Assembly: GCA_023150275.1 (NCBI GenBank)
Contig: JAKLLG010000002.1
Location: forward strand, 12,511 to 76,510
Reading direction: 5' to 3'
Source: Rhodocyclaceae bacterium
GTDB lineage: Bacteria; Pseudomonadota; Gammaproteobacteria; Burkholderiales; Rhodocyclaceae
Length of the DNA: 64,000 nucleotides
Made by a program: the position numbers and the translations under genes. The notes beneath the pieces were generated by a model that was not told the origin of the DNA, did not search any database, and saw nothing but the letters and a program-made list of their open reading frames with translations. Below are positions 28,519-41,656 of the stretch, one piece after another. Positions within the stretch are counted from its first letter, which is position 1, and each line of letters begins with the position of its first letter.

Positions 28519-28530
28519 TCCACCGAACGC

Positions 28531-28580
28531 AAAGCGCCCCGATCCGGCAACGGATCGGGGCGCTTTGCTTTGCTGTCTTT
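28531..28580 (+). terminator. rho-independent terminator
   Basis: aaagcgccccgatccg-gcaa-cggatcggggcgcttt hairpin followed by a T-rich tract. Confidence 0.7.
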
Positions 28581-28638: not shown

Positions 28639-28682
28639 CGACATAATATGTCTTGACATATTATGTCGTCTCTCCTATAAAT
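28639..28682 (+). promoter_or_regulatory. sigma70-type promoter (-35 TTGACA, 17-bp spacer, -10 TATAAA) embedded in a perfect 12-bp inverted repeat (putative operator)
   Basis: The inverted repeat is cgacataatatg-tcttga-catattatgtcg. -35 TTGACA lies at 28654-28659 and -10 TATAAA at 28677-28682. ATG at 28731 has a GAGGAG RBS. Confidence 0.6.
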
Positions 28683-28730
28683 ACGGCATCGCGATGTCAT
28701 TGCGATATTGCCCGAGGAGACTTGCCAAGA

Positions 28731-29146
28731 TGAACCATGTGCAAAAACAGATCGAAGGTCTGGATGCGCTCGTCAGCAGCCGTTTGGGCGGCGTGTCGAC
28801 GTCGATGCAGCCGGTGCCTGGTGACATGCCGGTGATCCAGATCGTGGTCGACGGTTACGAGTCGCTGCCCATCTATCTGACTTTTTCAGACGCCCAGTGC
28901 CTGTGTATCTGCTACCTGTGGACGGAAGACGAGGTGGTTGCCGAGCGGCGCGGGGCGCTGATGGAGGCGCTGCTCGATCTCAATATTTCCGTTCCCTTGT
29001 CGTCCTTCGGGCGCATTGGTCGTCACTATGTGTTGTTTGGCGCGCTGGCGCGCGATTCTGCCGTCACTGACATTGCCCAGGACGTGGTGGCATTGCTCGA
29101 CAACGCGGTGGATGCGCTCGACGCGTTTGCCGATTACCTGCGCTGA
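28731..29146 (+). CDS. YjfI-like protein (DUF2170)
   Basis: 139 aa. ...PIYLTFSDAQCLCICYLWTEDEVV... matches the YjfI family by recollection. First gene of the operon. Confidence 0.55.
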
Positions 29147-29170: not shown

Positions 29171-29888
29171 CATGAGTTCCGTCTTTACCAAAATGCTTAC
29201 CCTGGTGCGCGGCAGCGCCCGCGAAATCGGCGAAAGCGTCGTCGATGCCAATGCCACGCGCATCTACGAACAGGAAGTGCATGAAGCACGCAATGCCGTA
29301 GCAACCGCCAAGCAGGAACTGACCGTGGTGATGGCCAAGGCCACGCAGACCGCCCGGGAAATCGAGCGCCTGAAGAAGGAAATTACGCGCTACGAGCAGC
29401 TGGCGGTCGAAGCGCTCGGCAAGCAGGAGGAAGCGCTGGCCGAAGAAGTGGCCGGCAAGGTCGGCGAGCTGGAGGCCGAGCTTGACGAGCAGACCAGGGC
29501 GCATGCCGACTTTACGGTGAACGTCGCCAATCTCAAGGATCTGATCCGCAATGCCGAGGCGCGGCTGCGCGAACATGATCGCGAGCTGGCCGTCGCCAGG
29601 ACGACCGAGAGCGTCTATAAGGCGACCATGACCATTTCCGGCGCCGTAGGCGCCAGCGGCTCGAAGCTGATGAGCGCCAAGGAATCGCTTGAGCGCATCA
29701 AACAGCGGCATGCCGATATGGCCGATCGCATGGCGGCCGCCGACGAGCTTGATCAGGAATTCGGCCATCGCGCGCTGGACAAGAAGCTGGCGGCGGCAGG
29801 CATCGGCGATACCAGCGATCGCAAGGCGCAGGCGCTTTCCCGTATTCGCCAGCAGCATGCAGCCAGGGCCGGCAAGGAAGGCACATGA
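29171..29888 (+). CDS. PspA/IM30 (ESCRT-III-like) family protein, YjfJ-like
   Basis: 239 aa and all-helical. MSSVFTKMLTLVRGSAREIGESVVDANATRIYEQEVHEARNAV... is a typical PspA/IM30 N-terminus. RBS AAGGAGA. Confidence 0.8.
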
Positions 29889-30226
29889 CCGAGGGCAAGC
29901 GTCCGCCGCGCTGGCAGAGTTCGGATCGGGCGATCCGTGCCGTGCAGATCGCGTTCGACGTAGAGGCGGCGGTGCTCAATGCCGTTCGCGCCGCCGCCTT
30001 CAACAATGATCTGTCGACCTCGGATCAGCTGCGTCTGGTGCTCGGGCTGGAGGTGATCCGCAAACCCAAGCGACCGCGCCTGACTGTGTCGCTGTCGCCG
30101 GAGGACTATGCGGTTCTTGGCAAGCGCTACGGAGTCGATCCGGAAAATACCCTGGCAATCAAGGAAAAGGCGTTGGCCGACTTGATCGCATTTGCGCAGC
30201 AAAGCACAATGGCCCGCTCAGACTGA
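29885..30226 (+). CDS. putative DNA-binding protein with two ribbon-helix-helix-like segments
   Basis: ATGA-coupled to pspA. RPRLTVSLSPEDYAVLGKRYGVDPENTLAIKEKALADLI looks like CopG/Arc RHH. The N-terminal half has a similar beta-alpha-alpha pattern. Confidence 0.45.
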   Translation: MTEGKRPPRWQSSDRAIRAVQIAFDVEAAVLNAVRAAAFNNDLSTSDQLRLVLGLEVIRKPKRPRLTVSLSPEDYAVLGKRYGVDPENTLAIKEKALADLIAFAQQSTMARSD

Positions 30227-30268: not shown

Positions 30269-30919
30269 ATGCAGGGCTTGTTCGCTATCGTCACCAGCTG
30301 GCCAACGGCGATCTACACCGTATTGCTTGGTGTCGTCGTTCTCTACTGGGTTCTCGCGCTGGTCGGGCTGGTCGACTTCGAGCACGGCGGCCTGGATCTG
30401 GATGGACACCATGACATAGGGGTTCATGCCGACGGCGATCATCTTTCGACCATCGCCAGCTACGTGGTCGCATTCGGTCTGCACGGCGTGCCCTTCTCGG
30501 TGGTGATCAGCCTGCTGACGCTGATCGCCTGGGTCTGTGCCGGTCTGCTTGCCCAGTACCTGCTGCCGTGGGTGCCAACCCAGACATTGCGTGCGCTGGC
30601 CGGTCTTGGGATGCTGGTTTTCGCCATGGTGCCCGCAATTGTGCTGACCGCCTGGGTGGTCAAACCGATGCGCGGTTTGTTCGTACAGCATGCCGCACGT
30701 TCCAACCGGAGTCTCGTCGGACTCTACTGCCGGGTGACGACGCTCAACGTCAGCGAGCGCTTCGGGCAGGCCGAAGCCAGCGACGGCAACGGCAGCTTCA
30801 ACATCCGTGTTCGTGCCGAGGAGCCCAATGCCCTCACCAAGGGCTCGCGCGCGCTGATTATCGATTACGACGAGAGCAGCCAGCGCTACCGCGTGGAAGC
30901 TGCCGACGAGAACGCTTAA
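30269..30919 (+). CDS. YqiJ/NfeD-like inner-membrane protein (DUF1449, OB-fold C-terminus)
   Basis: An N-terminal TM bundle is followed by a soluble C-terminal domain. Sits directly upstream of the flotillin, as in E. coli yqiJK. RBS GGGGAGG. Confidence 0.6.
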   Translation: MQGLFAIVTSWPTAIYTVLLGVVVLYWVLALVGLVDFEHGGLDLDGHHDIGVHADGDHLSTIASYVVAFGLHGVPFSVVISLLTLIAWVCAGLLAQYLLPWVPTQTLRALAGLGMLVFAMVPAIVLTAWVVKPMRGLFVQHAARSNRSLVGLYCRVTTLNVSERFGQAEASDGNGSFNIRVRAEEPNALTKGSRALIIDYDESSQRYRVEAADENA

Positions 30920-30949: not shown

Positions 30950-33052
30950 ATGGAACTGATCATCACCGCCATCGGCATCTTGGCCCTGTTCATATTCGGC
31001 CTGTTTGCCCTGTTTGCGAAGTTCTACTACAAGGTCGAGCAGGGGCATGCCATGATCGTCAACAACCTGCGGGCCGAACCCGAGGTGACCTTCACCGGCG
31101 GCATGGTTTACCCGATCATCCACAAGATGGAAATGATGGATATCTCCATCAAGACCATCGTCATCAAGCGGACCGGCAACGAGGGTTTGATCTGCAAGGA
31201 CAACATCCGCGCCGACATCGAGGTGACCTTCTTCGTTCACGTGAACAAGACGGCCAGCGACGTGCTCAAGGTGGCGCAGACGATCGGCTGTGCCCGCGCC
31301 TCCTGCCAGGAAACGCTGGAAGAACTGTTCGCCGCCAAGTTTTCCGAAGCGCTGAAGACCGCCGGCAAATCGATGAACTTCGAGGATCTCTATCAGGCTC
31401 GCGATCAGTTTCGCGACGAGATCATCCGCCAGATCGGCGACAACCTCTCCGGCTATGTGCTCGAAGACGCTGCCATCGACTACCTGGAACAGACACCGCT
31501 CGACAAGCTGGATCCCAACAACATTCTCGACGCCCAGGGCATCCGCAAGATCACCGAACTGACTGCCGTCGAGCATATCCAGACCAATCAATGGCAACGC
31601 GACGAACAGGCAAAGATCAAGAAAAAGGACGTTGAAACCCAGGAGACGATCTACGAACTCGAACGCCAGCAGGCCGAGGCGCAGGCCCGACAAGTGCGTG
31701 AGATTGCCGCTGTTCAGGCACGTGAACAGGCGGAGGCGCAGCGTGTGCAGGCAGAGGAAAGGGCCAAGGCCGAGTTGGCCAGGCTCAACGCCGACCAGCT
31801 GATTGCCGTACAACAGGAAAACGTGCAGCGCGAGAAGGAAGTCGCCGAGAACAACCGCAAGCGCGCGGTCGCCATCGAGGAAGAGCGTGTCACCCGCGCC
31901 CGCCAGCTGGAAATCGTCGATCGCGAAAAGGAAGTTACGCTGCAGACCATCGACAAGGACAAGGCCGTCGAAGTGCAGAAGAAGGCCATCGCCGACGTTA
32001 TCCGCGAGCGCGTCATCGTCGAACGCACGGTGGCCGAGCAGGAAGAGGCGATCAAGGAGGTTCGCGTGGTGTCCGAAGCCGACCGCACCCGCAAATCGGC
32101 GGTCATCGAAGCCGAGGGCAAGGCGGAGCACGATCTGGTGCTGGCGGTGAAAGCCGCCGAGGCGGACGAGCGCCGCGCTCGCCATCTGGCCACGCAGGAA
32201 CTGACGCTGGCCGAAGCCAAACTGAAGGTTGCGGAGAAAGAAGCGGAAGCGAAGAAACGCGAAGCCGAGGGAATCGAAGCCTTCACCGCAGCTCCCGGCC
32301 TCGCTCAGGCCAAGGTACAACTGGCGGCTGCCGATGCGACCGAAAAAACCGGCCTGGTCGAAGCCAAGGTCAAGATTGCCGATGCCGAAGCGACGGCCAG
32401 GTTCGGCGCCGCCGAAGCGGAAGCGCTGCGCCTCAAGCTGGAAGCCGAAGCCCAGGGCAAACAGCAACTCGGTCTTGCCGACGTGCATGTGAAGTCGGCC
32501 GACGCCGACGCCGTCAGCAAGCAGGGGCACGCCGAAGCGGAGGCCGTGGAAGCCAGGATGCAGGCCGAGGCGCGTGGCCTCAAGGAGAAATTCGACGCGA
32601 TGCGCGCGATGGCGCCGGAGACCCGGGCGCACGAGGAATACCGCATGCGTTTGCAGAATGCCCACGTCGAAACCCTCAAGGGCATCGAAGCGCAGAAGGA
32701 TATCGCGGCCGAACAGGCGACGGTGCTGTCGACCGCGCTGGGCAACGCCAAGATCGACATCGTCGGTGGCCAGGGCGACTACTTCGAGCGCTTCGTCAAT
32801 GCGCTTGCGGTGGGCAAGGGCATCGATGGCGCGATCGCCAAGAGCGAGACCCTGCAGATTGCACTGAAGGATCATCTGACCGGCGAGCGTGATCTGGTCG
32901 GGGATCTGCAAGGGCTGGTCGGCGCACTGGGTTCTTCTTCCTCCGAGCTGCAACATCTGAGCGTCAGCGCGATGATGGCGAAAGTCATGCAGGAAGGTTC
33001 GGAGGATCAGCGCTCGGCCCTGCAGAACCTGCTCGCTAGCCTGCGCAAGTAA
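30950..33052 (+). CDS. flotillin family protein (SPFH/band-7 domain, YqiK-like), 700 aa
   Basis: N-terminal TM segment and an SPFH domain, then a long Ala/Glu/Lys-rich coiled coil (EAEAQRVQAEERAKAE...). Confidence 0.85.
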   Translation: MELIITAIGILALFIFGLFALFAKFYYKVEQGHAMIVNNLRAEPEVTFTGGMVYPIIHKMEMMDISIKTIVIKRTGNEGLICKDNIRADIEVTFFVHVNKTASDVLKVAQTIGCARASCQETLEELFAAKFSEALKTAGKSMNFEDLYQARDQFRDEIIRQIGDNLSGYVLEDAAIDYLEQTPLDKLDPNNILDAQGIRKITELTAVEHIQTNQWQRDEQAKIKKKDVETQETIYELERQQAEAQARQVREIAAVQAREQAEAQRVQAEERAKAELARLNADQLIAVQQENVQREKEVAENNRKRAVAIEEERVTRARQLEIVDREKEVTLQTIDKDKAVEVQKKAIADVIRERVIVERTVAEQEEAIKEVRVVSEADRTRKSAVIEAEGKAEHDLVLAVKAAEADERRARHLATQELTLAEAKLKVAEKEAEAKKREAEGIEAFTAAPGLAQAKVQLAAADATEKTGLVEAKVKIADAEATARFGAAEAEALRLKLEAEAQGKQQLGLADVHVKSADADAVSKQGHAEAEAVEARMQAEARGLKEKFDAMRAMAPETRAHEEYRMRLQNAHVETLKGIEAQKDIAAEQATVLSTALGNAKIDIVGGQGDYFERFVNALAVGKGIDGAIAKSETLQIALKDHLTGERDLVGDLQGLVGALGSSSSELQHLSVSAMMAKVMQEGSEDQRSALQNLLASLRK

Positions 33053-33631
33053 ATGGCCCGCGAACCCGAACTGCAGTGCTATTGCGGCCCGCGGCAGACG
33101 CTGGCCGTGACGGAGGAGGGCGGTCTGCGCCAGTGGCGCTGCCGGCGCTGCGGCGGCCGACGTTTCCTGCTCGCCGACTTTCGCCGGTGGCGCGAGCAGG
33201 GTGGTGCGCAGCAGCTTGCAGTCGGGTTGCCGGCTGCGGCGACGGAATACCACGAAACCCCATCTTCTCGCCTGTGCCAAAGCTGCGGGCTGATCATGGC
33301 GCGTTACCGGGTGGCCAGCGATCTGGCGTTCCACATTGACCGTTGCGCACCTTGTCAGTCGGTCTGGCTCGATGGCTGCGAGTGGGAAATCCTTGCCAGC
33401 CAGCAGTGGCTGGCACAACTCGACGAGATCATGTCAGATCGCTGGCAGAAACGTCTGCAGCAAAGCGAGGCCGACGCGCGGCGCGAGCAGACCCTGCGCG
33501 TCCGCTTTGGCGATGCCGAGTACGAGCGGTTGCGTGAAATCAGCCGCTGGCTCGCGCAGCAGGCGAAGCGACGGGAAATGCTGGCCTTTCTGAACGCCGA
33601 ACCCTCTGCCGGTGCGGAGCGCCTCCGATGA
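33053..33631 (+). CDS. protein with two zf-TFIIB-type zinc ribbons and a C-terminal coiled coil
   Basis: CYCGP...WRCRRCGGRRFLLADF and CQSCGL...IDRCAPCQSVWLDGCEWEIL both match the CxxC...CxxCxGxWxDxxE pattern. Confidence 0.6.
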   Translation: MAREPELQCYCGPRQTLAVTEEGGLRQWRCRRCGGRRFLLADFRRWREQGGAQQLAVGLPAAATEYHETPSSRLCQSCGLIMARYRVASDLAFHIDRCAPCQSVWLDGCEWEILASQQWLAQLDEIMSDRWQKRLQQSEADARREQTLRVRFGDAEYERLREISRWLAQQAKRREMLAFLNAEPSAGAERLR

Positions 33632-34605
33632 TCGTTCCGCAATACTGGGCCGAAGCCCGCATCCAGGAGCGCCGCGGAAACAGGCAGCTGACCGTGCGCC
33701 GCTTCGGCTGGTCCGAGCATAGCCAGGACGAAGCGCAGGCCAACGCCGAGGCGCGCGTGCGCACCGCGTTCGAGCGTATCGTCTCTGGTGAGAAGCTGCC
33801 CAGACACGAGCCGAAGGTCGCCTACAACGGCGCCGATGGCGTGCCTATCCGCGAAGAAGTACTGGCGCGCCATGGCGATGTCGTGATTACCCGGAATGCC
33901 TACGGCGCGAGTTGCCTCAATACACCGGACGTGCTGTTCGCCGATATCGATTTGCCCGCAACTTCCGCGGCGTCGCGGAAGTTGCTTGTCCATTTTGTCC
34001 TGCCCGGAATGGCGGCAATGGCCGGTTGGCTGACGCATTCGTGGCTTGTCTTTGCGCTGCTCGCCGTGGCGGCAACCGTTTTCGCCGGCACGGTCGCGAA
34101 GCGGCTAGACAGAAATCGCGGGCAACGCATGGAAACCGCCGGGTGTGCGGCCCGCCAGCGTGTCGCAGATTTCGTTGCGGCGCATCCTGACTGGCACGTG
34201 CGGCTCTACCAGACCCCGGCCGGTCTTCGTGCTCTGGTCATGCATCGTACTTTCGATGCCGACGAGCCCGCCGCGCAGGAGTTTTTTCGGGCACTGCACA
34301 GCGATCCGGTCTACGTGCGCATGTGCCGCAACCAGAAATGCTTCCGTGCCCGCGTCAGTCCCAAACCCTGGCGCGTCGGCATGATCCGGCATATCCGGCC
34401 GCGTCCCGGCGTGTGGCCGGTCAGGACCGAGCATCTGGCCCTGCGCCGGGAATGGATTGCCGAGTATGAAAACCGGGCCAGGAGCCACGCTTCCTGCCGC
34501 CTCATTGCAACTCTTGGTTCGCCGACGGTAGACCCCAAGGCGTTCGCCGTACAAACCCTGCATGACGAGTTGAGTCAGGCCGCTTCGTCACTGCCTCTTG
34601 CCTGA
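33628..34605 (+). CDS. hypothetical protein (325 aa, central hydrophobic segment)
   Basis: ATGA-coupled. One or two TM helices (LLVHFVLPGMAAMAGWLTHSWLVFALLAVAATVFAG). No recognisable motif. Confidence 0.5.
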   Translation: MIVPQYWAEARIQERRGNRQLTVRRFGWSEHSQDEAQANAEARVRTAFERIVSGEKLPRHEPKVAYNGADGVPIREEVLARHGDVVITRNAYGASCLNTPDVLFADIDLPATSAASRKLLVHFVLPGMAAMAGWLTHSWLVFALLAVAATVFAGTVAKRLDRNRGQRMETAGCAARQRVADFVAAHPDWHVRLYQTPAGLRALVMHRTFDADEPAAQEFFRALHSDPVYVRMCRNQKCFRARVSPKPWRVGMIRHIRPRPGVWPVRTEHLALRREWIAEYENRARSHASCRLIATLGSPTVDPKAFAVQTLHDELSQAASSLPLA

Positions 34606-34610
34606 ATGCC

Positions 34611-37600
34611 ATGAGCCAAACCGAAAACCCCGATGCCGTAGATGCCGCCGTTGCCGAAGGCGGCAGTTACGAACTGCTGAAAAAGCGCCTGCAGCTGCAG
34701 GGCGATGCGCTGGCCGGAAAGATCAGGCGGCTGAACGAGGATCGTCTGGCCGCGTTCGGCCGTTCCGACCTGCGTCTGCTCAGTCGCTTGCGCGCACGCA
34801 CCGAGAACAACTGTGTGGCGCGCGACATCGTCCGCGTCGGTGATCTGCTGGTCTTCGGCTACAACGTCTTCATGGGGCTGCGTCAGGAGATTCGCGCGGC
34901 CGACGTGTTCAGCCTGTATCGCCTCGGCGAAGGTGCCGGCAGTGAAGAACTGGAGCCGGTTGCGCTGGAAGGCAGTTTTCTCGCCGACCCGCGTTTCACC
35001 CTCGATTTCCGCGAGCTCTACACCTATTACAAGCAGGCCAGCCTGACGCAATTGCGGGTGCATCAGCACAAGCTGCTGGCTGCGTTCCAGATCGGGCCGC
35101 AACTGACCGACCTGCGCGTCTTCCGGTGGTCGATCGAGGCCGATGGCGGCCTCAAGTACATCGACAATCGCGGCGAACGCGACATCGCCCTGCCGGCCGC
35201 GCACGATTTTGAATGGTCGGTGAGCCGGCGCGAAGACCACGTCACCGGCAAGCATCCGCATGTGAATATCCTCGACACCATTTTTGTCGAGACCATCGGC
35301 GGCGATCTCACCGTCAAGATAGAGAACAATACCGAGAGCGGACTCGGCATCTACAGCGAGCCGGTGGAAGACAAGAACCAGTCGCTGGTCGATGCCGAGA
35401 TCTACCACGCCCGCCTGGGTTCGCTGATCCTGCTGCGCATCAAGCCCTACCGCGAAAGCGAATATCGCTACCTGGTCTACAACCACCGTACCCAGCATGT
35501 CGTTCGCATCGATGCCATCGGCCCCTCGTGCGTGCAGTTGCCGGAAGACCACGGCATCATTTTCCCGGGCGGTTACTACCTGCAATCCGGCGAATACAAG
35601 CGCTTCGATCTGCCGGCCGAGGCCATCGCCGGACTGCGCTTCAAGCGCATGCTGCGCTCGCCCAACGGCGAGGATGTGCTCTACGTGTTCTACCAGCCGG
35701 GCGGCGGGCAGTACGGCTTGTTTACCTACAACCTGATCGAAAAACGTCTGGGTACGCCGGTGCTTTCGAATGGCTACGCCCGCTTCGACGACGGCCGCAT
35801 GCTGGTCTTCCAGAGCGACGGCAGCGACCCCGTCCGCCTGCACCCGATGCAGTTGTGGCAAACCCCCTTCGTCAGCGACGACCATGCCGAGCGCCATGTC
35901 GATCGGCAGAGCTTCTTTGGCCGCATCGGCAACGCCGAGCTGGTGCGGGGTATCGCCGAATCGATGGAGATCAGCCGCGCCGTCGGCGAGCAGGCGCCGA
36001 CCCGCGTCGTCTACGAAGATATGCTCCGCCTTTGCGGGCGGGTACTGGACGGCTATTTCTGGCTGGACAGCGACGAGGCCGGCCACGCCGACGCCGATCT
36101 GCGCGCCATCGCCGGCACCGCACGGGCGGCGCTGGACGAGTTCGACAAGGTGGCGGCGATCCGGCGCGAGGCCTCGCGCCTTCTGGCCCAGGCCGAAGGC
36201 GAACAGCACGGCCTGCTGACCGACATCGCCGCCAGGCTCTGGCAACATCCGGACGATTTCGTTGCCATGCTCGACCGCCTGCGCCTGCAGCGCGGCCGCC
36301 TGCTCGGGCTGCGCGAACAGCGCTACATCGACCTTGCCCGAATCGAGGCTCTGGATCAGCAACTCGGCGAGGAGCAGAAGCGGGTCGGCGAAAAGACCCT
36401 TGTCTTCCTGCTCACCGACAAGGCATTCCAGCCCTACCAGGCGGCGCTAGCGGCCTGCGCCACGGCGATCGCCGCCGCCGCCACGACCGGCCAGCTCGAC
36501 GAACAGGGCAAGGGTCTGGAACAGACTGCGCATGCGCTCGACCTGCTCAACGACCTGGTCGCCAACCTGCCCGGCGGCGACGCGACCTCGCGGACCGCCA
36601 TCCTCGAACAGATTTCCGCGGTCTATGCCGAAACCAATCGCCTGCGTGCTGAGGTTCGCAACCGGCGCAAACAACTGGCCACCACCGAACTGGCCTCGGA
36701 ATTCGGCGCCCAGTTCAGGCTGCTCGGGCAGTCGGTGGAAAGCGCGCTGGAGCGCGTCGATACCCCGGAGCAATGCGACGACGCGCTGACCCGGCTGCTC
36801 GCGCAACTGGAAGAACTGGAAGGCCGTTTTGGCGAACAGGAGCAATTCGCCGCCGATCTCGACGAGAAGCGCGAATCGATCTACGAAGCGCTCACTGCGA
36901 AGAAGCAGCAACTGCTGGAAGTCCGTCAGCGCCGTACGCAGATCCTGCTCGATTCCGGTCAGCGCATTCTGGCCGGCGTACCGCGCCGCGTGCAGCAGTT
37001 TACGGTGCTCGACGAAGTCCATGCCTATTTTGCCGGCGACCCTCTGCTCGCCAAATGCCGCAGCATTTGCGACGAACTGCGCGGCATCGGGGCGCAGGTG
37101 CAGGCCGACGATCTCGACACTCGCCTCAAGACCGCCCGCGATCAGGCGCTGCGGGCGGTGCGCGATCGTTCCGAACTGCTCGCCGACGACGGCAACACCA
37201 TCCGCCTCGGCCGTCACGCCTTCACCGTCGGGCGCCAGGCGCTCGAACTGACGCTGGCGCCGAGCGGCGATGGCCTGGCCTACCACCTGACCGGTACCGA
37301 CTACCTGGTGCCCTTCGTGCATGACGAAGCGCAGCGCCTGCAGCCCTATTGGACGATGGCGCTGGTTTCCGAATCGCCGGCCTTCTATCGCGCCGAGTAT
37401 CTGGCCGGGGAAGTGCTGCTGGCGAGCCAGCGCGGCGAAATCGCCGCTTCGTTCGAGGCTCTGCAGGCCTTGTGCCTTGCCGCCGAAGGCGAGCGCGACG
37501 GCTTGCTCGCAGTCGTCCGCGATTTCTCGGCGAGCCGCTATCAGGAGGGCTACCAGAAAGGGGTGCATGACCACGACGCCGCAGCCATTCTCGCCGCACT

Positions 37601-39887
37601 GGTGCCGATGCAGGCGCACGCGGGGCGGCTGGCCTTCAGCCCGCGCGCCCGGGCTCTCGCCGCGCTCTACTGGCTGCAGGGCGTGCCGGCCATCGAGCGG
37701 CCGGGGCTGCAGCGGCAGGCAGCGAGTGCCGGCCAGATCCATGCGTTGTTCGGTGCCGGCCGCGTTCGCGAAGCGCTGGTCGTTCGCTGGCAGCCGGCCA
37801 TTGCCCGCTTTGCCGAGCGGGAGCAATTGCTGGCGCTATGGCAGACGGGTCCGGTGCTGGTCGATGAAGCGGCCGCTTATCTGGCCGAGGAGCTTGCCAG
37901 CGGCGGCGAATGGGTCGCCAGTGGCGCCGCACTGGATCTTGCAGAGGCCTTCACCCGCCATCTCGAACGGGCAAATCACCTGGGACGCTGGCGCGAGCAA
38001 TTGGCCGACTGTGTGCCGCTGGAATGCTGGCAACTGGCCCGCGACTGGGTCGAGAGCTACTGCGCCGCAGCTGCGCCGGAGGCAGCGGCGTGGAGCGACG
38101 AAGCAGCCGCCACCCTGGTGCTGGAATTGCCGCGGCAACGCCACAACGCCGGCTTGAGCGTGACGGTCGGCGGGTTGCGCGGCGAACACCCGCGCGTCGT
38201 CAATGGAGAACTGGCGCTCAATCTCAACGATTTCCATCTGCGGGCGCGTACCCACCGGCAGGAGATCGTTCCCGGGGTTCTGCGCTGGCACGCCTTGCGC
38301 CAGGAACTGGTGGCGAGCGAAAAGGCGCGCCTGAGCCTTGAACAGTTCCAGGCCAAACCGCTCTCCAGTTTCGTGCGCAATCACCTGATCGATGAGGTCT
38401 ATCTGCCGCTGGTCGGCGACAACCTCGCCAAGCAGATCGGTGCCGCCGGCGACAGCAAGCGCACCGACCGCATGGGCATGCTGCTGCTGATTTCGCCGCC
38501 GGGCTATGGCAAGACGACGTTGATGGAATACATCGCCGACCGTCTGGGCCTGATATTCGTGCGCATCAACTGCCCGGCGCTGGGCCACGACGTCGTCTCG
38601 CTCGACCCCGACAAGGCGCCGCACAGCGGCGCCCGGCAGGAACTGGAGAAGCTGAACCTCGGCCTGGCGATGGGCAACAACGTCATGCTGTACCTCGACG
38701 ATATCCAGCACACTCACCCGGAGTTCCTGCAGAAGTTCATCGCGCTGTGCGACGGAACCCGCCGCATCGAGGGCGTCTGGCAGGGGCGGCCTCGCAGCTA
38801 CGATCTGCGCGGCAAGCGCTTTGCGGTGGTGATGGCCGGCAATCCGTATACCGAATCGGGCGAGGCTTTCAGGATTCCCGACATGCTTGCCAACCGCGCC
38901 GACATCTACAACCTCGGCGACGTACTCTCCGGCCGCGAAGCGGCCTTCGCGCTTTCCTACATCGAGAACAGCCTGACCGCCAACCCGGCGCTGATGCCGC
39001 TGGCGACGCGCGATCCCAAGGATATCGACCGTCTGGTCAAGCTGGCACAGGGGCACGACATCCCGGCCAGCGAGTTTGCACACGGCTACAGCGCGGCCGA
39101 ACTGAGCGAGCTGACCGCCATCCTGCAACGCCTGTTCACCGTTCGCGACGTGCTGCTCAAGGTCAACCTCGCCTACATCCAGTCCGCCGCGCAAGAAGAC
39201 GACTACCGTACCGAACCGCCGTTCAAGCTGCAGGGCAGCTATCGCAACATGGCCAAGCTCGCGGCCAAGGTCACCGCGATCATGGATCCGCAGGAGCTGG
39301 ACAACCTGCTGCGCGACCACTACCGCGGCGAAGCGCAGACCCTGACCACCGGCGCCGAGGAGAATCTGCTCAAGCTGGCGATGCTGATCGGCACGCCGAC
39401 GGCCGATGAAACGCGGCGTTGGCAGGCGATCTGCGAGGACTACCGCCGCTTCAAGAAACTCGGCGGCGCCGAGAGCGACGGCGCCACGCGGGTCGCCAAC
39501 CTGCTCGCCGACATCGGGGTGACTCTGGATGGGCTGAGGCAGCAACTTGCGAGTCCTGTACCGGGAACTCCCGATTGGCCTGCGGAGCTAGGGTCGCTAC
39601 GCAACACCATTGCTGCGATCAAACCCCAGGTGACAGTCGATGTCGCCGAGTCGCCGGCAATCGCCGCCATCGTTGACCGCCTGGCAGAGACCTACGAAAA
39701 GGGGATTGCGCCGCTGGTCAATGCGACCTATCACAAACTCAAGCTCGATCATGACATGTGGGAACGTCTGCGCGACATGGCGAAGGACATCAAGCGCCTG
39801 GACGCAGCGCTTGAACAAGCCGATTCACCAAAACCCGCGCCCAAGCCGCGCAAAACCGGAGGCAGCCATGAGCAAGGAAAGTCGTGA
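34611..39887 (+). CDS. 1758-aa multidomain protein with C-terminal AAA+ (AAA_5/MoxR/McrB-like) ATPase domain
   Basis: Walker A LLISPPGYGKTTL (nt ~38490-38520). Walker B NVMLYLDDIQH. Sensor/arginine region VVMAGNPYTESGEAFRIPDMLANRADIY. Precedes these with a beta-rich N-terminal domain and an ~800-aa helical region. Confidence 0.8.
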   Translation: MSQTENPDAVDAAVAEGGSYELLKKRLQLQGDALAGKIRRLNEDRLAAFGRSDLRLLSRLRARTENNCVARDIVRVGDLLVFGYNVFMGLRQEIRAADVFSLYRLGEGAGSEELEPVALEGSFLADPRFTLDFRELYTYYKQASLTQLRVHQHKLLAAFQIGPQLTDLRVFRWSIEADGGLKYIDNRGERDIALPAAHDFEWSVSRREDHVTGKHPHVNILDTIFVETIGGDLTVKIENNTESGLGIYSEPVEDKNQSLVDAEIYHARLGSLILLRIKPYRESEYRYLVYNHRTQHVVRIDAIGPSCVQLPEDHGIIFPGGYYLQSGEYKRFDLPAEAIAGLRFKRMLRSPNGEDVLYVFYQPGGGQYGLFTYNLIEKRLGTPVLSNGYARFDDGRMLVFQSDGSDPVRLHPMQLWQTPFVSDDHAERHVDRQSFFGRIGNAELVRGIAESMEISRAVGEQAPTRVVYEDMLRLCGRVLDGYFWLDSDEAGHADADLRAIAGTARAALDEFDKVAAIRREASRLLAQAEGEQHGLLTDIAARLWQHPDDFVAMLDRLRLQRGRLLGLREQRYIDLARIEALDQQLGEEQKRVGEKTLVFLLTDKAFQPYQAALAACATAIAAAATTGQLDEQGKGLEQTAHALDLLNDLVANLPGGDATSRTAILEQISAVYAETNRLRAEVRNRRKQLATTELASEFGAQFRLLGQSVESALERVDTPEQCDDALTRLLAQLEELEGRFGEQEQFAADLDEKRESIYEALTAKKQQLLEVRQRRTQILLDSGQRILAGVPRRVQQFTVLDEVHAYFAGDPLLAKCRSICDELRGIGAQVQADDLDTRLKTARDQALRAVRDRSELLADDGNTIRLGRHAFTVGRQALELTLAPSGDGLAYHLTGTDYLVPFVHDEAQRLQPYWTMALVSESPAFYRAEYLAGEVLLASQRGEIAASFEALQALCLAAEGERDGLLAVVRDFSASRYQEGYQKGVHDHDAAAILAALVPMQAHAGRLAFSPRARALAALYWLQGVPAIERPGLQRQAASAGQIHALFGAGRVREALVVRWQPAIARFAEREQLLALWQTGPVLVDEAAAYLAEELASGGEWVASGAALDLAEAFTRHLERANHLGRWREQLADCVPLECWQLARDWVESYCAAAAPEAAAWSDEAAATLVLELPRQRHNAGLSVTVGGLRGEHPRVVNGELALNLNDFHLRARTHRQEIVPGVLRWHALRQELVASEKARLSLEQFQAKPLSSFVRNHLIDEVYLPLVGDNLAKQIGAAGDSKRTDRMGMLLLISPPGYGKTTLMEYIADRLGLIFVRINCPALGHDVVSLDPDKAPHSGARQELEKLNLGLAMGNNVMLYLDDIQHTHPEFLQKFIALCDGTRRIEGVWQGRPRSYDLRGKRFAVVMAGNPYTESGEAFRIPDMLANRADIYNLGDVLSGREAAFALSYIENSLTANPALMPLATRDPKDIDRLVKLAQGHDIPASEFAHGYSAAELSELTAILQRLFTVRDVLLKVNLAYIQSAAQEDDYRTEPPFKLQGSYRNMAKLAAKVTAIMDPQELDNLLRDHYRGEAQTLTTGAEENLLKLAMLIGTPTADETRRWQAICEDYRRFKKLGGAESDGATRVANLLADIGVTLDGLRQQLASPVPGTPDWPAELGSLRNTIAAIKPQVTVDVAESPAIAAIVDRLAETYEKGIAPLVNATYHKLKLDHDMWERLRDMAKDIKRLDAALEQADSPKPAPKPRKTGGSHEQGKS

Positions 39888-40104
39888 TTATCTGGAAATG
39901 AGCTTTCGCTCCATTCAGTGTTTCACTGACGATGGAAGATTGATGCCGGAAGAACTGCAACGCATTGCCGACATCGCCTTGCGCGACGGCGTGGTCGATG
40001 CGAACGAAAAGCGCGTGCTGGCGAGCATCATCGGCAAGCTGACGAAGGAGGAACTGACGCCTTCCATGCAGACTAAGCTAACCGAACTTGCGAAGTACAT
40101 TTGA
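39868..40104 (+). CDS. small TerB-like domain protein
   Basis: ATG with GGAGG RBS. Overlaps the giant gene's 3' end by 20 nt. TDDGRLMPEELQRIADIALRDGVVDANEKRVLASII matches the TerB acidic-repeat pattern (DG.vd..E...L..I). Confidence 0.55.
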   Translation: MSKESRDYLEMSFRSIQCFTDDGRLMPEELQRIADIALRDGVVDANEKRVLASIIGKLTKEELTPSMQTKLTELAKYI

Positions 40105-40137
40105 GCGCGTTTCCGTGTACCGGAAATCGACCGCAGG

Positions 40138-40474: not shown

Positions 40475-41656
40475 ATGAATCCTCGTTCAGCACAATCCGA
40501 TCTCGCCCGATTGCTATCGGAATTTCCGGCTGTCGTTCTGCTGGGGCCGCGTCAGGCTGGCAAGACGACGCTGGCGCTCGCCGAAGCCGGGCGGCGCGGC
40601 GACGCTCTGTATCTCGACCTTGAGCTGCCGTCGGCGCAGCGCCAGCTCGACGATCCCGAGGCCTTTCTGCTGGCGCATCCAAAGCGCTTGGTCATTCTTG
40701 ATGAGGTGCAGCGCATTCCGGAACTGTTCGCCATCCTGCGCGGTGTCATCGACCTGCGTCGGCGGGCGGGCGAGGCCGCCGGCCAGTTCCTGCTGCTCGG
40801 CTCCGCTTCCGGGGTGTTGCTGCAGCAGGCCAGCGAAAGCCTGGCTGGCCGGGTGGCGCAACTTGAACTGACGCCGTTTCAGGCGCGGGAAGTGATCGCG
40901 CCGGAAAGCGACGACATGCTCCGCTCGCTCAACGCGCTTTGGGTGCGGGGCGGTTTTCCGCTGGCCTGGCTGGCCGGCGACGATGCTGCCAGCCTGCGCT
41001 GGCGCGAGGCTTTCATTGCCACTTATCTGGAGCGGGACATCCCGGCGCTCGGCCCGCGCATTCCCGCGACGACCTTGCGCCGGTTGTGGACGATGCTGGC
41101 GCACGCGCAGGGCGGCCTGCTCAACCAGTCGCAACTGGCGGCCTCGCTGGCCGTCAGCGGGCAGACGGTGGCGCGCTACATCGATCTGCTCTGCGATCTG
41201 ATGCTCGTGCGCCGCCTGCCGGCCTGGCACGGCAATGTCGGCAAGCGGCTGGTGCGTGCGCCCAAGGTGTACGTGCGCGACAGCGGCCTCGTTCATGCCT
41301 TGCTCGGCCTTGCCGATCTGGACGCGATACTGTCGCACCCGGTTGCCGGTGCCAGTTGGGAGGGCTTCGTCGTCGAGCAGTTGCTGGCTGCGGCGCCGGA
41401 GGCGGAAGCGAGTTTCTATCGCACCTCGCACGGTGCCGAAGCCGATCTGGTGTTGACGTTGCGAAACGGGGATGTCTGGGTGGTCGAGATCAAGCGTTCC
41501 TCGGCGCCCACGGTGTCGAAGGGGTTTCATCTGGCGGCGGTCGATGTCGGCGCCAGCCGCAAGCTGCTGGTGGCGCCGGTGGCGAGCACCTATCCGCTGC
41601 GCGAGGGGATCGAGGTAATGAATCCGCTGGCGGCGGCGAAGTTGCTCGCCGGGTAA
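40475..41656 (+). CDS. AAA+ ATPase with C-terminal DUF4143 (COG1373 family)
   Basis: Walker A GPRQAGKTTL and Walker B LVILDEVQ. The C-terminal GASWEGFVVEQL is typical of the DUF4143 family. Confidence 0.75.
   Translation: MNPRSAQSDLARLLSEFPAVVLLGPRQAGKTTLALAEAGRRGDALYLDLELPSAQRQLDDPEAFLLAHPKRLVILDEVQRIPELFAILRGVIDLRRRAGEAAGQFLLLGSASGVLLQQASESLAGRVAQLELTPFQAREVIAPESDDMLRSLNALWVRGGFPLAWLAGDDAASLRWREAFIATYLERDIPALGPRIPATTLRRLWTMLAHAQGGLLNQSQLAASLAVSGQTVARYIDLLCDLMLVRRLPAWHGNVGKRLVRAPKVYVRDSGLVHALLGLADLDAILSHPVAGASWEGFVVEQLLAAAPEAEASFYRTSHGAEADLVLTLRNGDVWVVEIKRSSAPTVSKGFHLAAVDVGASRKLLVAPVASTYPLREGIEVMNPLAAAKLLAG

Follow-up and report, generated by a model that had tools for sequence, protein, structure and literature searches.

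A small, distantly TerB-like protein encoded at the end of a PspA/flotillin/AAA+ membrane-stress operon, a probable optional accessory

The 64,000-nt stretch of Rhodocyclaceae DNA analysed here (the window) carries a nine-gene operon whose last cistron, as the original prediction held, is a small stand-alone gene. Its 78-aa product is read here, with somewhat better than even confidence, as a distant TerB-like protein that serves as a facultative accessory of a sub-membrane stress or remodelling operon, acting as an adaptor or regulator at the flotillin and AAA+ module. The ORF (39868..40104, + strand) encodes MSKESRDYLEMSFRSIQCFTDDGRLMPEELQRIADIALRDGVVDANEKRVLASIIGKLTKEELTPSMQTKLTELAKYI, a predicted cytosolic protein of four helices and a distant relative of TerB. 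The exact protein is present in GenBank as MCK6404884.1, a “hypothetical protein” from a Rhodocyclaceae metagenome-assembled genome (MAG).

The start codon, an ATG at 39868, follows a GGAGG ribosome-binding site (39858..39862, + strand) with a 5-nt spacer, and the TGA of the preceding 1758-aa giant gene occupies 39885-39887, giving a 20-nt overlap; these coordinates and this geometry are as originally described. The 20-nt overlap recurs in locus L082, while L083-85, L008, L009 and L013 have shorter ones of 4 to 8 nt. Because the ribosome-binding site and the start codon both fall within the final codons of the giant gene, translation of the small ORF is probably coupled to translation of the giant ATPase, and the earlier claim of a tie between the two genes holds to the extent that their position suggests such coupling. 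A short ORF that matches no curated family model and begins inside the 3' end of a long gene could have arisen by chance or from a wrongly called start, and so be no gene at all. That reading is scarcely credible, being refuted already by the homologue set, by its spread over 307 clusters at 50% identity (profile search, 1.8 billion representatives) and by an excess of synonymous substitutions. About 209 homologues were found at E <= 0.01, nearly all of 78-83 aa and with a common N-terminal start; across the 66 codons compared with the L082 orthologue, 21 differences are synonymous only and 9 change the amino acid. The strong ribosome-binding site and the confident helical model argue in the same direction, and these comparisons establish the ORF as a real gene under purifying selection. 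A longer ORF in the same frame, starting at 39640 (154 aa), was considered and rejected because no homologue carries the extension.

All genes of the operon lie on the + strand. The gene upstream ends in a strong terminator (28529-28568), which is followed by a probable promoter and operator, read from the sequence at 28639..28681, in which a 14-bp inverted repeat with perfectly matched arms (28639-28668) overlaps a TTGACA element (28653-58) that is separated by a 17-nt spacer from TATAAA (28676-81). The first gene encodes a DUF2170 protein (28730..29146; YjfI-like, a CesT/Tir-type chaperone; PF09938, 7.8e-27) and the second a 238-aa PspA/IM30 family protein of the YjfJ type (29172..29888; PF04012, 2e-32) that is also present in L082. 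Next comes p113 (29885..30226, 113 aa), which overlaps the PspA stop codon by 4 nt and is kept only in betaproteobacterial versions of the operon. A 216-aa YqiJ/YuaF-like membrane protein (30269..30919) with 3-4 transmembrane segments and a C-terminal soluble domain precedes a 700-aa YqiK-type flotillin (30950..33052), which has an N-terminal transmembrane segment (residues 1-29), an SPFH/Band-7 domain (Band_7, 7.5e-11) and a long coiled coil. The 192-aa Zn-ribbon protein that follows (33053..33631) has a weak match to Zn_ribbon_TFIIB (8.5e-4); its homologues occur in about 30 loci and always adjoin the giant gene in the other loci. The seventh gene, u325 (33628..34605, 325 aa), encodes one hydrophobic segment, has no family match and is lineage-specific, being found in the window and L082 only. 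The giant AAA+ gene and the small ORF complete the order. The operon is flanked by housekeeping genes, for example mnmA and purB. A scan found no intrinsic terminator 3' of the small gene, where a weak 6-bp hairpin (40110-40126) can be seen by eye, so the 3' end of the operon is placed by synteny only.

The giant protein (34611..39887, + strand) consists of an N-terminal DUF3686 region (5e-194), DUF7902 (5.7e-24), a coiled coil with a weak SMC-like match, and an AAA+ core matched by AAA_22, AAA and AAA_5, with the Walker A motif SPPGYGKTT at about residue 1296. The N-terminal part of such ATPases has been described as beta-propeller repeats (Ravi et al. 2024, PMC11237479); in the window this part corresponds to Pfam DUF3686. 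Between loci the AAA core shows 66-85% identity, and sequence searches found no relative of the giant protein in the PDB. Its GenBank name, “DNA repair ATPase”, gains no support from context because the surrounding genes form a membrane-stress operon. Literature searches on DUF3686, PF12458, TerB with SPFH/flotillin/AAA+, and “DNA repair ATPase” with flotillin returned nothing relevant. It had been asked whether in other genomes the small domain is fused to the C-terminus of the giant; no such fusion was found among the 150 best representatives or, at E <= 10, in the giant-length ORFs (>=1000 aa) of the 80 loci collected through the small protein. Mutual information across 102 full-length giants likewise gave no residues or segments that robustly track the small gene: the signal is diffuse and follows phylogeny, and a slight excess of top-scoring columns at 1683-1737 fails across clades.

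The small gene is linked to the operon, yet it is optional, and the linkage is one-sided. From the side of the small gene, the conservation that had been asked of orthologous loci is clear: the ORF is kept in the nearest of them, and of the 80 loci retrieved with the small protein, 53 have the YqiJ-like, flotillin and giant genes together on the same strand. From the side of the ATPase the expectation fails, with the small gene in only 4 of 52 complete operons, and since so few have the gene, its product cannot be a core subunit. Within the operon the gene occupies one of three alternative sites (after PspA, between the flotillin and the giant or Zn-ribbon gene, or last), with gaps of -20 to about 100 nt around it, and which site it takes follows the phylogeny of its product. 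In L083-85 the small gene is present and PspA is not encoded in cis, so the small gene goes with the flotillin and ATPase module.

The remaining 27 loci have no operon within 10 kb of the small gene (19 of them with full flanks), and their contexts are diverse, with no common conserved alternative partner except in Marinobacter, where the gene clusters with VasX_N proteins. The protein could accordingly be imagined as an independent stress protein hitch-hiking beside the operon, tied to it neither physically nor by regulation, and the many operons that do without the gene are consistent with this. Such independence is nonetheless rather improbable. The gene is always on the same strand and tightly packed when it lies in the operon, whichever of the three positions it takes; its stop/start overlaps with the giant gene are kept across a clade; and an operon with about one copy per genome at most would be a chance neighbour in far fewer than 53 of 80 loci.

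The family consists of stand-alone proteins of about 80 aa from Beta- and Gammaproteobacteria, for which neither Pfam nor NCBIfam holds a model, and it therefore deserves one of its own. Uliginosibacterium and Metapseudomonas otitidis are among the bacteria that have the gene. The family is essentially absent from plasmids and phages, where four distant matches on Vibrio megaplasmids and one phage fragment were found. The small protein is predicted to be soluble, with a mass of 9 kDa and four helices (residues 3-22, 27-38, 45-57 and 65-77 in an AF2 model with a pLDDT of 78), and a hydrophobicity scan found no hydrophobic segment. Its invariant charged residues are R6, D7, E10, D22, D40, D44, E47 and R49. 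Several of these belong to a DG...E motif that occurs twice, 18 residues apart (D22-G23...E29 and D40-G41...E47), in the settings F19-x-D-D22-G23...E29-L30 and A37-L-R-D40-G41-V-V-D44-x-N-E47-x-R-V-L51. D40, E47, A37 and L51 are kept in >=90% of 116 aligned family sequences.

Members of the TerB family carry two copies per domain of a helix-A-x-x-D-G-x-h-x-x-x-E-x-x-h-L-helix motif, which is also seen in DjlA and in the PDB structure 2OU3. The original prediction saw the TerB hallmark in the small protein. What stands of this claim is the pair of TerB-type DG...E motifs and a family signal below threshold; the window protein itself has no match to Pfam PF05099 (118 positions; gathering cut-off 24.4 bits) at E <= 1, an outcome that the prediction had itself named as refuting. 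No homologue reaches that cut-off either, while 31 of 39 homologues have TerB as their highest-ranking family below threshold (best E 4.5e-4). Consensus sequences of the family score 16.5 and 20.1 bits against PF05099, below the 24.4-bit cut-off, and E. coli DjlA itself scores 34.9 bits. Profile alignment with hhalign matched the small family to the TerB domain of E. coli DjlA with a probability of 68% (P 5e-5), the best match pairing IALRDGVVDANEKRVLASI of the small family with AAFADGSLHPNERAVLYVI of DjlA. Against a DjlA alignment the probability was 46-64% (P 6e-5 to 2e-4), with a profile that is shallow because the DjlA homologue search gave mostly fragments and close relatives. As controls, 200 column shuffles gave a score of >=33 in 1-2 cases, and reversing the alignment gave 9-10. 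A bridge is offered by a larger protein, P0264, whose residues 550-611 are matched by the small-family profile (E 3.2e-9) and which is also Pfam-positive for TerB (35.7 bits for the whole protein, above the cut-off; best stretch 547-592). Even DjlA finds the TerB-like structure 2OU3 only at E = 1.4, through the same motif.

The differences from TerB are nonetheless considerable. The small protein has 78 aa where the PF05099 model has 118 positions, its two motifs stand 18 residues apart with one helix in common, an atypical arrangement, and unlike TerB/DjlA proteins it comes without a transmembrane segment, a J-domain or Ter partners. Fold searches returned generic helical repeats alone and are non-specific. 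In UniProt some homologues already bear the name “TerB” or “DjlA N-terminal domain-containing”. The data point, with partial support, to a compact family that is distantly related to the TerB/DjlA-N superfamily. The label “TerB” rests on one common motif and implies neither tellurite resistance nor defence.

A divalent-cation site has been proposed for TerB domains, and the small protein is possibly metal-binding. A more specific proposal is that it senses Ca2+ or another divalent cation through EF-hand-like loops and turns on PspA, flotillin and AAA+ when ions leak through a damaged membrane. The two helix-DG-loop-helix motifs with their invariant D and E residues would suit such a sensor, and several family members have EF-hand matches below threshold (EF-hand_5, best 1.4e-5; EF-hand_1, 2.3e-4). 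Every one of these scores is under the Pfam cut-offs, however, and searches of the PDB with small-family profiles gave only non-significant matches (E >= 0.08), mostly to EF-hand proteins at E 0.08-1. EF-hands come in pairs, each with a loop of 12 residues in which positions 1, 3 and 5 supply oxygen ligands, position 6 is Gly and position 12 is Glu. In the small family, positions 5, 6, 8 and 12 fit and positions 1 and 3 are non-acidic (in loop 1, C/A/L and T/A/S respectively; in loop 2, I and L), and both loops use the one helix between them, unlike an EF-hand pair. Absence of the gene from most operons would also be odd for an essential trigger. A cation sensor of this kind is therefore unlikely.

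The idea owes part of its appeal to the PspA protein encoded in the operon and to an analogy: at wounds in eukaryotic membranes, ALG-2 recruits ESCRT-III and Vps4. The literature places PspA in the ESCRT-III class, and PspA/Snf7 with an AAA+ ATPase has been likened to the Snf7-Vps4 pair (Ravi et al., PMC11237479). By this analogy, the acidic DG-loop protein would be a Ca2+-type sensor that recruits or activates ESCRT-III-like PspA, flotillin and the giant AAA+ protein, a bacterial counterpart of ALG-2-triggered ESCRT-III/Vps4 repair. This fuller version is a shade less likely again; were the sensor reading true, the small gene would be a dedicated damage trigger that the operon acquired in the lineages carrying it.

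The operon had also been thought to recall Ter-linked stress and defence neighbourhoods. A small ORF in a Ter- or Shango-type stress or anti-phage module would encode a TerB protein that senses envelope perturbation for an ATPase effector, and both the TerB-like motif and the adjoining large P-loop ATPase are in keeping with this. The next gene downstream (40475-41656) moreover matches the PADLOC candidate PDC-S01 (3.7e-89), but it lies 370 nt away and has a homologue in none of the 80 loci. PADLOC gives the operon members no match above P-loop-level noise and none to Shango or Ter; TerC, TerD, TerA, a helicase or a nuclease were not found among the operon genes, nor was any Ter or Shango partner in the scanned flanks. 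The likeness to Shango (SngA, a TerB protein; SngB, an ATPase; SngC, a helicase) and to terZABCDE is that a TerB-type protein is encoded beside an ATPase, whereas the window lacks the helicase, TerC and TerD, and the ATPase family and context are different. The actual partners (PspA/YjfJ, YqiJ-like, flotillin) are membrane-stress proteins joined to an AAA+ gene, the flanks are housekeeping genes, and plasmids and phages are nearly devoid of the family. A Ter or defence role is very unlikely, and judged by its gene content the operon is not a tellurite-resistance or phage-defence system.

On the preferred reading, that of an accessory, the operon would be a sub-membrane stress response or remodelling system with the small protein as its last cistron in the window. 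The protein would dock beneath the membrane on the flotillin and AAA+ module, its presumed partner, as an adaptor or regulator, and its invariant charged residues may form the partner interface or a putative divalent-cation site. PspA/flotillin/AAA+ operons of this type are widespread and mechanistically unexplored, and functional information comes from the phenotypes of the Pseudomonas aeruginosa bac cluster. What is new is the small protein itself, highly conserved and recruited into the operon at three different positions, depending on the clade. It offers an experimental handle: at 9 kDa, soluble and with charged residues that are invariant, it lends itself to purification, mutagenesis and bait experiments, and the optional gene defines natural plus/minus variants of the system for comparison.

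The bac cluster (bacABCDEF, “biofilm-associated cluster”, PA14_16140-16200; PMC10948618) is the only experimentally studied version of the operon that literature searches found; its phenotypes concern biofilm, rhamnolipid secretion and virulence (PMC10948618). BacA is a DUF2170 protein and BacB is PspA. RT-PCR primers from PMC10948618, mapped on related Pseudomonas loci, identify bacC as YqiJ-like, bacD as flotillin and bacE (PA14_16190) as the giant ATPase; bacF is probably PLD-like, since the gene after the giant in L071 has an HKD motif. PA14 probably lacks the small gene: the amplicon spanning bacD and bacE measures 557 bp, and a small gene between the two would bring it to about 800 bp. 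The bac promoter has been proposed to be sigma-54-dependent (PMC10948618), whereas the promoter in the window is sigma-70-like with a palindrome, and no sigma-54 match was found in its region.

In E. coli, yqiJ-yqiK encodes an NfeD-like membrane protein and a flotillin. The window flotillin is a clear homologue of YqiK (BLASTP, 2e-35), and the upstream membrane proteins share the same architecture, with a weak, colinear BLASTP match to YqiJ (E 0.003); the E. coli pair stands alone, without an adjacent PspA, giant ATPase or small TerB-like gene. The closest description is the operon that Ravi et al. (mSystems 2024; PMC11237479, section 19, Table S3) defined from genome comparisons, comprising CesT/Tir (DUF2170/YjfI), PspA (YjfJ family), YqiJ/YuaF, a TM-Band-7-flotillin and a beta-propeller/coiled-coil AAA+ ATPase. 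All five components are present in the window in identical order, with the DUF2170 and PspA dyad, the YqiJ-like gene (whose position fits this operon type) beside the TM/Band-7 flotillin, and the large AAA+ protein. A PLD (HKD) gene occurs in some proteobacterial versions (PMC11237479), and L083 has such a gene, as does L071, where it lies downstream of the giant. The term “TerB” is absent from the text and one supplementary file of PMC11237479, and its description of the operon names no such small component; to that description the window adds p113, u325 and the optional small gene.

The small ORF on the forward strand at 39868-40104 is a real gene. Its ATG lies at 39868 and its stop codon at 40102-40104, giving a 78-aa product. 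Both the start and a GGAGG ribosome-binding site (39858-39862) fall within the last codons of the giant AAA+ ATPase gene (34611-39887, 1758 aa), whose TGA at 39885-39887 creates a 20-nt overlap; the original prediction, made from the sequence alone, was right in its coordinates and its description. A search of 5.8 billion proteins returned 209 homologues at E <= 0.01, nearly all of 78-83 aa and with the common N-terminus M-x-x-E-S-R-D-Y-L-E. When 1.8 billion cluster representatives were searched exhaustively with an HMM, 307 clusters matched at E <= 0.001 (117 at E <= 1e-10); these are almost without exception stand-alone proteins of 75-90 aa. A longer in-frame ORF starting at 39640 was rejected, since no homologue supports the extension. 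Across an alignment of 39 sequences (51-84% identity), 17 residues are invariant (R6, D7, Y8, L9, E10, F19, D22, G23, L30, A37, D40, D44, E47, R49, V50, L51 and I54). Compared with L082, the closest orthologous locus, 66 codons include 21 with synonymous differences only and 9 with amino-acid-changing differences. The analysis shows that the protein is soluble and helical, that purifying selection acts on it and that its gene lies inside an operon. An identical protein from a Rhodocyclaceae metagenome-assembled genome is in GenBank as MCK6404884.1, 'hypothetical protein'.

The original prediction had seen the giant gene and missed the start of the operon, 11 kb upstream. The operon comprises nine genes, preceded by a strong terminator at 28529-28568 and then by a sigma-70-like promoter: a DUF2170/YjfI-like gene (28730-29146), PspA/IM30 (29172-29888), p113 (29885-30226), a YqiJ-like membrane protein with 3-4 TM segments (30269-30919), a YqiK-type flotillin (30950-33052), a Zn-ribbon protein (33053-33631), u325 (33628-34605), the giant (DUF3686, DUF7902, a coiled coil and AAA+) and, last, the small gene. 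The promoter is near-consensus and lies ~50 nt upstream of the first gene; at 28639-28681, a perfect 14-bp inverted repeat, CGACATAATATGTC-TT-GACATATTATGTCG, overlaps the TTGACA, which is followed by a 17-nt spacer and TATAAA. Judged by its sequence, the repeat is likely an operator for a dedicated repressor. The p113 start and the PspA stop share 4 nt (ATGA); p113 has no family match and is conserved in betaproteobacterial versions of the operon only. It is a candidate regulator because of its size, its position and the palindromic operator. The 325-aa u325, between the Zn-ribbon and giant genes, has one hydrophobic segment (~residues 134-159) and no match in Pfam, NCBIfam or PADLOC. Among 160 related loci, a homologue was found in L082 only, and u325 joined the operon as a lineage-specific member. 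MCK6404883.1, the neighbour of MCK6404884.1, bears the name 'DNA repair ATPase'. This GenBank name of the giant derives from the Pfam description of DUF3686 and is probably misleading, because the context (PspA, flotillin, YqiJ-like) gives no pointer to DNA repair.

The small protein had been called TerB-like, recalling Ter-linked stress/defence neighbourhoods. The defence framing was unsupported, as PADLOC matched none of the operon's proteins to a defence system. The TerB identity survives as a distant, sub-threshold likeness in one motif at the family level, and is not recovered for the window protein itself, which has no match to Pfam PF05099 at E <= 1 and so fails the check proposed with the original prediction. 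NCBIfam returned nothing for the small protein, and PADLOC gave one weak match only (PDC-S48, E 0.012), to neither a Shango nor a Ter model. Among its homologues, TerB is the commonest Pfam family (31 of 39, with a sub-threshold best E of 4.5e-4), and 11 of the 39 match DUF533, which is related to TerB. Family consensus sequences score 16.5 and 20.1 bits against PF05099, below the cut-off of 24.4 bits. The N-terminal domain of E. coli DjlA is a bona fide PF05099 member (34.9 bits), and hhalign of the small family against DjlA paired IALRDGVVDANEKRVLASI with AAFADGSLHPNERAVLYVI (P 5e-5, probability 68%); against a 15-sequence DjlA alignment, P was 6e-5 to 2e-4. As a control, the columns of the DjlA alignment were shuffled 200 times; 1-2 of these shuffles attained the real score, with a figure of 9-10 for the reversed alignment. 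The small-family profile also matched residues 550-611 of a larger protein, the 1336-aa TPR protein P0264, at E 3.2e-9; the Pfam TerB model scores this protein at 35.7 bits, above its cut-off, and matches it best over residues 547-592. Even the DjlA profile matches 2OU3, a TerB-like protein of solved structure, no better than E = 1.4 and via the same motif, indicating that recognised superfamily members are joined by little beyond it. The names that UniProt assigns automatically to some of the homologues ('Tellurite resistance protein TerB', 'Co-chaperone DjlA N-terminal domain-containing protein') stem from this weak likeness too. On our reading, the small protein is a divergent TerB-superfamily relative of compact size. 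The small family has no existing model and merits its own.

EF-hand models match the family weakly, and EF-hand membership fails because loop positions 1 and 3 lack ligands and the loops share the intervening helix. Divalent-cation binding has been proposed for TerB domains, and by analogy the acidic DG loops of the small protein may be putative sites for it. A further analogy, in which the small protein, like eukaryotic ALG-2, would sense cations and thereby trigger membrane repair of the PspA type (ESCRT-III-like), is improbable.

The expected conservation of the small gene at orthologous loci held when loci were anchored on the small protein and not when they were anchored on the ATPase. 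In 53 of 80 small-protein-anchored loci from Beta- and Gammaproteobacteria, YqiJ-like, flotillin and giant genes lie within 10 kb, without exception on the same strand; adding the close relatives L082-85 brings the count to 57/84. Carriers of the small gene include Metapseudomonas otitidis, Aquipseudomonas alcaligenes and Uliginosibacterium. The small gene occupies one of three alternative sites (after PspA; between flotillin and the giant or Zn-ribbon gene; or last), with gaps to its neighbours of -20 to about 100 nt, and its position follows the small-protein phylogeny. In the clade of the window (L082, L083-85, L008, L009 and L013), it is always last and overlaps the giant's stop by 4-20 nt. 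L083-85 have the small gene without PspA in cis, so its association is with the module of flotillin and ATPase. The reverse survey retrieved 80 metagenomic loci, and only 4 of 52 complete ATPase-anchored operons with adequate flanks carry the small gene; in the ATPase tree, small-gene-bearing operons fall into patchy clades. A fusion of the small domain to the giant protein, another suggested check, was found neither among the 150 best representatives nor among the giant-length (>=1000 aa) ORFs of the 80 metagenomic loci at E <= 10. The surveys thus mark the small protein as a facultative accessory and not a core subunit. Helix 1 (R6-D7-Y8-L9-E10...F13...S15-I16...F19), family-specific and invariant, looks like a partner interface. 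In the proposed mechanism, translation of the small protein would be coupled to that of the ATPase, and the product would dock on the module that flotillin and the ATPase form. Among 102 full-length giants, scanning by mutual information for residues or segments tracking the small gene gave nothing that holds across clades.

The remaining 27 of the 80 loci have no operon nearby, 19 of them with full flanks, and no common neighbours were found among them. 'Lone' small genes occur in Marinobacter (L038 2074-13206, L040 and L074 4190-11138, with two copies each in L038 and L040), in clusters that also encode several proteins of unknown function and proteins of 1147-1176 aa with VasX_N, the N-terminal part of a membrane toxin of type VI secretion; here the family may have a second setting, one related to membrane damage. 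Plasmids and phages are essentially free of the family. A relative of the small protein (43% identical, E 7e-7) lies at 262-471 of DQ115811.1, an unannotated fragment of 1.9 kb that was deposited under the name of cyanophage AS-1. The next same-strand gene in the window (40475-41656), 370 nt past the small gene, encodes an AAA_14 + DUF4143 ATPase matching the PADLOC candidate defence family PDC-S01 (3.7e-89); such a gene beside the operon is conserved in none of the 80 genome loci examined (L001-L080). In L082, a Na+/Ca2+ exchanger family protein (PF01699; 10286-11218, opposite strand) directly follows the small ORF; this was seen once and may be coincidental.

Ravi et al. (mSystems 2024, PMC11237479) described the same operon type from comparative genomics, with a PLD hydrolase added in some Proteobacteria. 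Their operon description has no small component, and 'TerB' is absent from the main text and one supplementary file. The only experimentally studied relative found in the literature searched is P. aeruginosa bacABCDEF (PMC10948618), which was studied with biofilm and rhamnolipid assays. A sigma-54 site was proposed for the bac promoter (PMC10948618), unlike the window, where 28639-28681 contains none. Mapping the RT-PCR primers of PMC10948618 onto related Pseudomonas loci identifies bacC as the YqiJ-like gene, bacD as the flotillin gene and bacE (PA14_16190) as the giant ATPase. The bacD-bacE amplicon is 557 bp in PA14 (PMC10948618), whereas ~800 bp is expected for small-gene-bearing species, from which we infer that PA14 lacks the small gene. 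PLD/HKD-family genes accompany the operon in the Pseudomonas locus L071 (15518-16264, after the giant) and in L083 (1077-1769, before the YqiJ-like gene), and are probably the counterpart of bacF, which is itself probably PLD-like because the L071 gene following the giant bears an HKD motif. The operon is thus already known, concerned with membrane stress and mechanistically uncharacterised, and the small protein is a new variant of the TerB-like kind, serving as an optional member of it.
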